Part shown: one piece after another, positions 1,897 to 2,529 of the stretch
Layout: every line of letters starts with the position of its first letter
How positions within the stretch are numbered: the stretch's first letter is position 1
Source of the DNA: Promethearchaeota archaeon
GTDB lineage: Archaea; Asgardarchaeota; Lokiarchaeia; Sigyniarchaeales; SOKP01
NCBI GenBank assembly: GCA_048940925.1
Contig: JBHLOC010000042.1
Span: 1 to 41,701, forward strand
Direction: 5' to 3'
DNA length: 41,701 nt
Made by a program: the position numbers and the translations under genes
The notes under the pieces: generated by a model
Databases searched by the model: none
The model's input: the letters and a program-made list of their open reading frames with translations, nothing else
What the model was told of the DNA's origin: nothing

Positions 1897-2194
1897 TTTA
1901 ATTATTCACATTAAAACTTAAAAATAAAGAACTAGTATATTGTTAAATAATAAAAATATTAGTTTAAAAATTTTTTTTGAAATCATCATTTCTTAAAAGA
2001 AATTAATATATTTTCCTATTTTTTAATTAACTAAATGTAATCTTATGTTTAATTTTAATAATCAAAATTATTGTGGATATCTTAAAGTAAATAACATTTA
2101 TTTATTTTGGTAACACTCAAAAATAAAAAAGATTTTTATAAGATTTTATTCTATTATTTTTTAGAACTTTATTTAATAAGTTTAAAATAATTAA

Positions 2195-2203
2195 GGTTGT
2201 GAT
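2195..2203 (+). promoter_or_regulatory. Shine-Dalgarno-like element (GGTTGTGAT) 8 nt upstream of the aIF1 ATT
   Basis: 7/9 match to GGAGGTGAT; the same GTGATAAGA motif precedes the ATG of gene 12946..13473 with 9-nt spacing. Confidence 0.55.
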
Positions 2204-2211
2204 AAGAGAGT

Positions 2212-2529
2212 ATTAAAGACGACGATATTTGTCCATTATGTAGTTTTCCAAAAGAACTATGTATATGTGATAATTTAAGTGCTGATGAACAACAAATAGT
2301 AATATCTAACGATACGCGAAAATGGGGGAGGGTTGTCACGGTTATCACTTTCGTAGGAAATTTTGATGTTAATTTGAAAAATATATTAACAAAAGCTAAG
2401 AAAAAATGTGCTTCAGGAGGAACTGTTAGAAACAATGAAGTTGAACTTCAGGGAGATCACCGATTCAAGATGAAAAAATTATTGATAGATTTAGGATTTC
2501 CAGAGGAAAATATTCTCATTCAAGAATAA
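2212..2529 (+). CDS. sui1: Translation initiation factor aIF1 (SUI1), probable non-canonical ATT start; missing from ORF track
   Basis: Own translation, 105 codons: (I/M)KDDDICPLCSFPKELCICDNLSADEQQIVISNDTRKWGRVVTVIT...AKKKCASGGTVRNNEVELQGDHRFKMKKLLIDLGFPEENILIQE. It has the SUI1 hallmarks CASGGTV and ELQGDHR plus the archaeal N-terminal Cys cluster. In-frame TAA at 2203-2205. Confidence 0.95.
   Translation: MKDDDICPLCSFPKELCICDNLSADEQQIVISNDTRKWGRVVTVITFVGNFDVNLKNILTKAKKKCASGGTVRNNEVELQGDHRFKMKKLLIDLGFPEENILIQE

Follow-up and report, generated by a model that had tools for sequence, protein, structure and literature searches.

The aIF1 locus and its product

We analysed a 41,701-nucleotide (nt) contig, hereafter called the window, which is contig C31 of the Promethearchaeota archaeon genome G000 (4.8 Mb, 90 contigs, 29.6% G+C), and focused on its gene for archaeal translation initiation factor 1 (aIF1), a SUI1 protein whose reading frame lacks a canonical start codon. 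Families and genera are labelled f and g, f1 and g1 being those of the window, and ATH stands for ATT, ATA or ATC. The region around the start reads AAGGTTG TGA TAA GAG AGT ATT AAA GAC GAC GAT ATT TGT CCA, where the TTG at 2197 is also in frame. The features of the locus are as follows:

2146-2165, plus strand: conserved upstream block TTATTCTATTATTTTTTAGA, a candidate promoter with B recognition element and TATA box, near-invariant in same-genus and g22 sequences
2193-2203, plus strand: AAGGTTGTGAT, resembling a Shine-Dalgarno (SD) motif, whose AGG and GUGAU, on either side of a 2-nt mismatch, base-pair with GGAUCACCUCCU, the 3′ tail of the 16S rRNA
2200-2205, plus strand: in-frame stops TGA (2200-2202) and TAA (2203-2205), read directly, which shut the aIF1 frame upstream
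2204-2211, plus strand: non-coding spacer of 8 nt, variable at all three codon positions in the frame of the gene and in that of GTG 2199
2212-2529, plus strand: aIF1 (SUI1) coding sequence of 105 codons plus the stop at 2527-2529, assigned from the translation, the Pfam match and period-3 substitutions from 2212
2212-2214, plus strand: ATT start codon (AUU), assigned from comparative evidence and presumably decoded by initiator Met-tRNA
2230-2268, plus strand: N-terminal zinc knuckle CPLC-x6-CIC, seen in the translation and kept in all Asgard homologues examined
2287-2502, plus strand: SUI1 domain PF01253 (65.2 bits against a cut-off of 25.5, E = 3.2e-17, model positions 2-77 of 77)

With its full-length SUI1 domain, an archaeal-type zinc knuckle (CxxC...CxC) and a length of 105 amino acids (aa), compared with about 100 aa, the product belongs to the aIF1/eIF1/SUI1 family. 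The initial annotation had described an intact 105-codon SUI1 frame closed by TGA-TAA, in which the first canonical in-frame codons lie beyond the conserved N-terminal motifs and ATT 2212 and ATT 2227 are the near-cognate candidates. Inspection of the sequence bore this out. The first canonical in-frame codons, TTG 2374 (which would give a 51-aa product and falls within the Pfam match) and then ATG 2470, are both 3′ of the zinc knuckle, so that the knuckle would be lost with any canonical start, and ATT 2212 is the sole near-cognate candidate between the stops and the conserved Ile-Cys. An exact look-up of the 51-aa product in the protein collection gave no match. The upstream in-frame TGA is retained throughout family f1, and an extra TAG or TAA stands one codon 5′ of the ATT in the relatives L012, L014, L066, L072 and L120.

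Comparative evidence for a start at ATT 2212

Orthologous aIF1 loci were gathered from the same order, where 126 of the 146 genomes searched had a match. Within family f1 the readable set comprised 105 distinct sequences of this gene (copy 1; a second copy is described below) from 12 genera. No ATG, GTG or TTG was present from the upstream stop to the zinc knuckle in 98 of these 105 sequences (g1 43/43, g22 33/33, g21 7/7, g15 4/4, g16 3/3, g17 2/2, g13 1/1, g14 1/1, g23 4/5). When the 81 distinct family sequences that could be aligned on the motif were compared, the start codon was ATT in 78 and ATC in three, and ATA did not occur. The non-canonical start of aIF1 is conserved in all 12 genera sampled, the kind of conservation that is seen for the AUU start of bacterial infC.

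The same 81 sequences also revealed where coding begins. In both frames, all codon positions are variable over the 9 bases 5′ of the ATT; with the ATT begins a stretch in which only third positions vary, so that codon periodicity starts exactly at ATT 2212. The search pattern fixed the SD positions in this alignment, and their invariance is therefore built in; rows that were not filtered provide separate evidence of the motif. Elsewhere in the phylum, each codon of ATT AAA GAC GAC GAT ATT TGT has its counterpart in GTG TCT GAC GAT GAG ATA TGT of family f9, which has a positional equivalent in f26 as well. Further equivalents are GTG ACA GAT GAC GAA ATT TGT (f26) and CTG TCA GAC GAA GAC GGA ATA TGT (f9). 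ATT 2212 aligns with the GTG, CTG or ATG starts of other Asgard families.

The absence of a canonical start, and the truncated products that Prodigal-type callers give for this gene, would also be expected from a sequencing or assembly error that hides an ATG, from a decaying pseudogene, or from a start at ATT 2227 or TTG 2374. We consider this explanation negligible in probability. Independent metagenome contigs carry identical bases, as do more than 100 genomes. The metagenome contigs, which come from four runs, include a 92-nt unitig that matches the window exactly over 2134-2225; strain variants, seen in runs of 3-4 studies, are confined to 2165-2192 and to positions from 2226 on, with none in 2193-2225. 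At 2195-2215, the bases for which the initial annotation had sought confirmation, the reads have neither an ATG at 2212 nor an indel in the AGAGAG run. The aIF1 domain is full length and its substitution pattern is purifying. ATT 2227 encodes the Ile of the universally conserved I-C-P motif, lies 23 nt from the SD and varies in its third base (T/C/A) like a sense codon, and a start at TTG 2374 would leave the product without its zinc knuckle and with an incomplete SUI1 domain.

We therefore conclude that AUU 2212 is, with high confidence, the aIF1 start codon, because a canonical start is missing family-wide, periodicity begins at the ATT, the position is homologous to the starts of other families, the SD spacing is workable and the reads are clean.

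Shine-Dalgarno pairing and the leader

The 16S rRNA of G000, whose 3′ end was read on G000:C40, ends in GGATCACCTCCT, and GTGAT together with the upstream AGG is therefore complementary to it. GTGAT (2199-2203) leaves an 8-nt spacer to ATT 2212. Genome-wide, the distance from GTGAT to ATG peaks at 5-6 nt and ranges from 3 to 9 nt, with 10 cases at 8 nt, so that the proposed distance of 8 nt from an SD-like GTGAT lies inside the range of this genome. The motif GTGATAAGA occurs three times in the window, where 0.37 copies are expected by chance, and the other two copies both sit before ATG starts. In one, GTGAT is 9 nt from ATG 13473 on the minus strand, the internal control (gene 12946..13473) to which the initial annotation had pointed and which holds; in the other, GGTGAT is 6 nt from ATG 24597. 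The SD-like motif is retained in nine genera of family f1.

The aIF1 SD is not unusually weak, as its duplex energy of -9.3 kcal/mol equals the median of SD-led genes in G000. Only the spacing is atypical, at 9 nt in the GGTGA register compared with a mode of 6 nt that is also typical of ATH-start genes. Upstream, the block at 2146-2165 is a candidate promoter, judged by its sequence, and transcription from about 2180 would leave a leader of some 30 nt; a related block, TTCTATTA, is found upstream of aIF1 copy 2. The sequencing runs listed as containing the locus included no RNA run. A regulatory RNA structure at the start was rejected, since RNAalifold returned no consensus pairs for 16 diverse leaders and the leader of the window folds no better than shuffled sequences (z = +0.97).

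The GTG within the SD-like motif

GTG 2199 lies within the SD-like motif and one base out of frame with the gene. The short frame that it opens runs into TAA 2214-2216, which overlaps ATT AAA. Conceivably, ribosomes could start there and be shifted into the aIF1 frame at TAT TAA A, in a programmed +1 event. The prfB gene for RF2 is autoregulated through a +1 frameshift, and the aIF1 locus resembles it: both encode a translation factor, have a start codon out of frame further upstream, and combine an SD-like element with an in-frame stop. The equivalent GTG of copy 2, g12, g18 and g20 shares the frame of the gene and precedes the ATH codon by 12 nt rather than 13. Unlike prfB, however, the aIF1 locus has no conserved shift site or stop position: three g21 genomes read AAT CAA A without a stop, the GTG frame stops 2-3 codons earlier in g13, g16 and g23, and the GTG itself is missing from g17. 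This stretch of the 81-sequence alignment lacks coding periodicity in the frame of the GTG, GTG 2199 has no SD of its own at a workable spacing, and tRNA-Tyr cannot re-pair on AUU. We rejected the frameshift on the lack of conservation of shift site and stop position among genera, and consider it very improbable. Termination-reinitiation from the GTG mini open reading frame and a TTG-TGA 'start-stop' element were likewise discarded, neither being conserved among genera.

ATH start codons throughout the genome

The whole of G000 was scanned for SD 5-mers followed 5-10 nt on by a codon opening at least 100 codons, with an in-frame stop and no canonical start required within the 12 codons upstream. 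The scan returned 330 canonical SD-led matches (ATG 241, TTG 72, GTG 17). Among ATH codons there were 59 matches for ATT, 52 for ATA and 18 for ATC, of which 33, 31 and 11, respectively, had no canonical start in the next 15 codons. The corresponding counts for control codons were 24 (6) for AAT, 18 (7) for TTA, 13 (2) for TAT, 52 (11) for AAA and 16 (6) for TTT. This amounts to about 75 ATH-start candidate genes next to the 330 canonical ones, or about 14% of SD-led starts after background subtraction, and the ATH excess vanishes at non-functional SD spacings. In other genomes, raw counts of GGTGA-N6-ATH against control triplets were swamped by intragenic GGTGA and were uninformative.

Ten ATH candidates were tested against Pfam, and in all ten the model position 1-5 fell within 1-24 residues of the ATH codon and the first canonical start lay inside the domain. 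The ten are uS10, actin, uL16, a zinc-dependent alcohol dehydrogenase, Usp, a GPN GTPase, a response regulator, WrbA, a GFO/IDH oxidoreductase and a Ras-like GTPase. Start codons in G000 are, for example, ATA for uS10 (C37:5937), ATT for actin (C7:31497), ATC for uL16 (C41:83741) and ATA for the alcohol dehydrogenase (C41:168175). Among the initiation factors of G000, aIF1A, aIF2-alpha and aIF2-beta start at ATG.

A special initiator tRNA reading AUH was considered as well, and found no support: the one initiator-like tRNA identified by ARAGORN has a normal CAU anticodon, although only 34 tRNAs were found in this intron-rich genome and a second initiator is possible. The initiator tRNA gene lies in the window itself (30449-30580, minus strand) and has, besides the CAU anticodon, A1 and a GGG/CCC anticodon stem. 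Its 132 nt imply introns, and ARAGORN detects it only with long introns allowed. The ATG-started aIF2-beta gene (29069-29404, minus strand) is located about 1 kb from it.

Possible selection on the AUU start of aIF1

Since ATH starts are this frequent, AUU 2212 might be the start and yet simply belong to one of many ATH genes in a lineage with relaxed start choice, its conservation reflecting a fixed low expression requirement or mutation bias at 29.6% G+C, with no dedicated feedback. We regard this as a serious alternative, though somewhat less than an even prospect. In its favour, ATH starts occur in highly expressed housekeeping genes (uS10, uL16 and actin), ATH enrichment is specific to functional SD spacing, and the strength of the aIF1 SD is ordinary. 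Moreover, within genus g1 the ATH starts of uS10 and the GPN-loop GTPase are fully conserved too.

The behaviour of these two genes across the family speaks against it. The uS10 gene starts at ATA in all 26 same-genus genomes read, at ATA in g17 and g21 and at ATA or ATT in g15; elsewhere in family f1 it starts at ATG (g14), TTG or ATG (g22), TTG (g12, g13), GTG (g16, g20) and GTG or ATG (g23). The GPN-loop GTPase starts at ATT or ATA in g1, at ATT in g15, g16 and g21, at ATT or ATA mixed with ATG within g17, g22 and g23, and at ATG in g12, g14 and g20. ATH and canonical codons are thus swapped repeatedly at the same position, and ATH therefore serves as a start. In aIF1, on the other hand, no canonical replacement at the start position was seen in any of the 12 genera (about 105 sequences), and the codon stays ATT (78/81, with three ATC and no ATA) although ATT and ATA interchange freely in the GPN gene. 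To judge from these sequences, the toggling of uS10 and GPN next to the unreverted aIF1 points to selection on the AUU of aIF1. One g12 uS10 gene (L186, G046:C7:8325-8824, minus strand) has TCG where relatives have ATA, ATG, TTG or GTG, with GGTGA 7 nt upstream and no canonical in-frame start.

Outside the family, aIF1 starts at ATG in f4, f5, f7, f10, f14, f15, f20, f22 and f24 and in the f2 genera g8 and g24; at GTG in part of f9, in f12, f19 and f26 and in the f2 genus g11; and at TTG in the f2 genera g2 and g9. A near-cognate codon alone is available in f2:g5, f11 and f17 (ATA) and in f6 and part of f9 (CTG). Near-cognate aIF1 starts hence recur in separate Asgard families, which again argues against mere relaxation; they would have several independent origins and look commoner than a few-percent background, as measured in three genomes. 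Among individual loci, the start is apparently CTG in L256 and L259 (f6) and in L289 and L290 (f9), and apparently ATA in L267 (f11) and L297 (f17). These f6, f9, f11 and f17 starts stand about 4-6 nt (GGTGA register) behind AGGAGG, AAGGAG or AGGTG.

The same ATH scan was applied to 400-kb samples of two closed genomes of the order and to thirty 400-kb subsamples of G000. G042 (6.03 Mb), with an ATG-started aIF1, yielded 19 canonical SD-led starts and two ATH; G032 (4.36 Mb), with a TTG-started aIF1, yielded 28 and none; and G000, with its ATT, yielded 17-31 canonical and 3-13 ATH starts per 400 kb. Within the order, ATH-rich genomes and an AUU-started aIF1 thus go together, as one contrast between related lineages and not as a statistic. 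The near absence of ATH starts from G042 and G032 likewise points to selection on the AUU of aIF1. ATH starts are present but rare in G042. One of its two is that of RpoA1, RNA polymerase subunit A′ (L310, G042:C1:1900001-1920000, minus strand), apparently an ATC behind AAAGGTG.

Proposed feedback through the AUU codon

Two systems are known in which an initiation fidelity factor is controlled through its own start site. The bacterial IF3 gene infC has a conserved AUU start with translational autorepression (Butler et al. 1987, as cited in PMC4705826), and eukaryotic eIF1, a SUI1 protein, is autoregulated through an AUG in poor Kozak context (Ivanov et al. 2010, as cited in PMC6237735 and PMC4705826). 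In archaea, the Sulfolobus solfataricus 30S complex is reported to bind, in vitro, AUG and AUU mRNAs without aIF1 and AUG mRNA alone with aIF1 (reviewed in PMC4705826). In agreement with such a fidelity role, aIF1 of Pyrococcus abyssi proofreads erroneous complexes (PMC6237735).

By analogy, the small subunit would reach AUU 2212 through the SD-like AAGGUUGUGAU 8 nt upstream, and aIF1 would destabilise initiation complexes on near-cognate codons. More aIF1 would then mean less use of its own AUU start and less aIF1 more use, a negative feedback. Provided that this aIF1 still discriminates against AUU at all, its accumulation must lower its own synthesis. Such a loop could hold start-codon stringency at a level where the ATH-start genes, about 1 in 7 of those led by an SD, remain translated. 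Reversion of aIF1 to AUG would over-produce the factor and depress essential ATH-start genes, and the lack of reversion may be due to the many essential genes that share ATH starts.

We propose negative feedback of aIF1 through its AUU start as the best reading of these data, and a moderately probable one. The sequences establish the AUU start, its conservation and the use of ATH codons throughout the genome, whereas discrimination by this aIF1 against AUU and a response of its synthesis to its own level are inferred. The resemblance to infC is that the gene of a fidelity factor starts at a conserved AUU behind an SD, so that the expected logic is identical (less factor, more AUU initiation); unlike infC, the factor has the SUI1 fold, unrelated to IF3, and ATH codons make up about 14% of SD-led starts. 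With eIF1 the gene shares a homologous protein, the same fidelity role and a suboptimal own initiation site conserved over a long evolutionary distance, but here the weak feature is the AUU codon in an SD-led, prokaryotic-type leader, not the context of a scanned AUG. Like other ATH-start genes of G000, aIF1 has its ATT behind a GGTGA-type SD; unlike them, it has not exchanged its start for a canonical codon in any genus and, counted in the GGTGA register, lies 9 nt from its SD instead of the typical 6.

Several observations weigh against the proposed feedback. AUU is no distinctive mark of aIF1, since a non-canonical start is not exceptional in a genome with about 75 ATH candidates next to 330 canonical starts. 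AUU starts are very rare in E. coli; the infC-style argument from rarity does not apply here because ATH codons start about 14% of SD-led genes. Evidently AUH is well tolerated by the machinery, and the discrimination exerted by aIF1 may be slight. The aIF1 SD is average in strength (-9.3 kcal/mol) and not weak, and RNAalifold detected no conserved structure at the start. The comparison that points to selection rests on two comparator genes and two comparator genomes, and its contrasts may reflect few evolutionary events, as the comparator genomes are related. Finally, in g12, g18, g20, one g23 genome and copy 2, an in-frame GTG in the SD four codons upstream is a possible start; the choice between GTG and ATH is ambiguous there, although the sequences favour ATH because the three intervening codons are not conserved. 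Of the feedback through a non-AUG start that the initial annotation had suggested, the AUU start itself is thus supported by the comparative evidence, whereas rarity as a special mark is not.

A further-reaching possibility, which we put forward as speculative and rather unlikely, is that the AUU of aIF1 acts as a whole-cell homeostat. It would clamp stringency so that AUU, AUA and AUC stay accepted, ATH codons would thereby have spread to about 1 in 7 SD-led genes, including uS10, uL16 and actin, and this 'AUH regulon' would make reversion of aIF1 to AUG lethal. In that case the aIF1 level would be a global translational regulator, and the repeated origins of near-cognate aIF1 starts, AUA or CUG, among other archaea would be traces of this switch.

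Full-text literature searches found no report of an AUU-start aIF1, of archaeal aIF1 autoregulation or of ATH starts in Asgard archaea, in line with the initial impression that an AUU-start aIF1 had not been described for this group. A 2020 review gives archaeal start codons as AUG, GUG and UUG only. What would be new is an archaeal aIF1 case of a known kind of control, the start-site autoregulation of a fidelity factor, for which the feedback is proposed here. Bacteria, with IF3, and eukaryotes, with eIF1, both tune fidelity by poor initiation on the factor's own mRNA. If the proposal is true, the eIF1 homologue of the lineage closest to eukaryotes would supply the archaeal counterpart and make this a general design principle. 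AUU and AUG leaders compared under titrated aIF1 would offer a simple handle on archaeal and early eukaryotic start selection.

Consequences for annotation

The prediction that gene callers would miss or truncate the gene held for some resources only. In the JGI, ENA and Logan collections, aIF1 proteins are cut to 84, 76, 70 or 65 aa and the zinc knuckle is lost, whereas NCBI PGAP records of relatives already begin with MKDDDICP at this codon (105-107 aa), without comment. Because Prodigal-type callers shorten genes that start at ATT, ATA or ATC, the Asgard proteomes used in eukaryogenesis studies contain systematic N-terminal truncations. In NCBI, these archaeal aIF1 proteins (P0002-P0007, P0013) bear the name 'stress response translation initiation inhibitor YciH', which is misleading; YciH is the name of the bacterial SUI1 homologue.

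A second aIF1 copy and an interrupted aIF2-gamma gene

G000 carries a second aIF1 copy, 62% identical to the first, at G000:C58:42821-43135 (minus strand; L002). Its SD, AAAGAGGTGAT, is perfect (-14.4 kcal/mol) and contains an in-frame GTG, and ATT AAA follows 7 nt past the SD. Within family f1 this copy is sporadic, being found in G078, G085, G044, G101, G110, G120 and G136 and, in broken form, in G007. It may be a true paralogue or a product of bin contamination, for which G000 scored 8.4%.

The aIF2-gamma gene (G000:C68:45855-45910, minus strand; L348) is broken within the P-loop, where GHVDHG and (K)TTLVKAL are separated by 30 nt with in-frame stops. The insert has a hairpin, UGAAGG-aau-CCUUCA, and its minimum-energy fold displayed no clear bulge-helix-bulge motif. 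GGA AAG ACA is regained when precisely 30 nt are excised, counted from behind the first base of the Lys codon. The insert is present in G000, G001 and G003, and nine other congeners have an uninterrupted GHVDHGKTTLV. From its sequence, it is a candidate small mRNA intron or mini-insertion; the cbf5 pre-mRNA intron of Crenarchaeota is a precedent for an archaeal mRNA intron.

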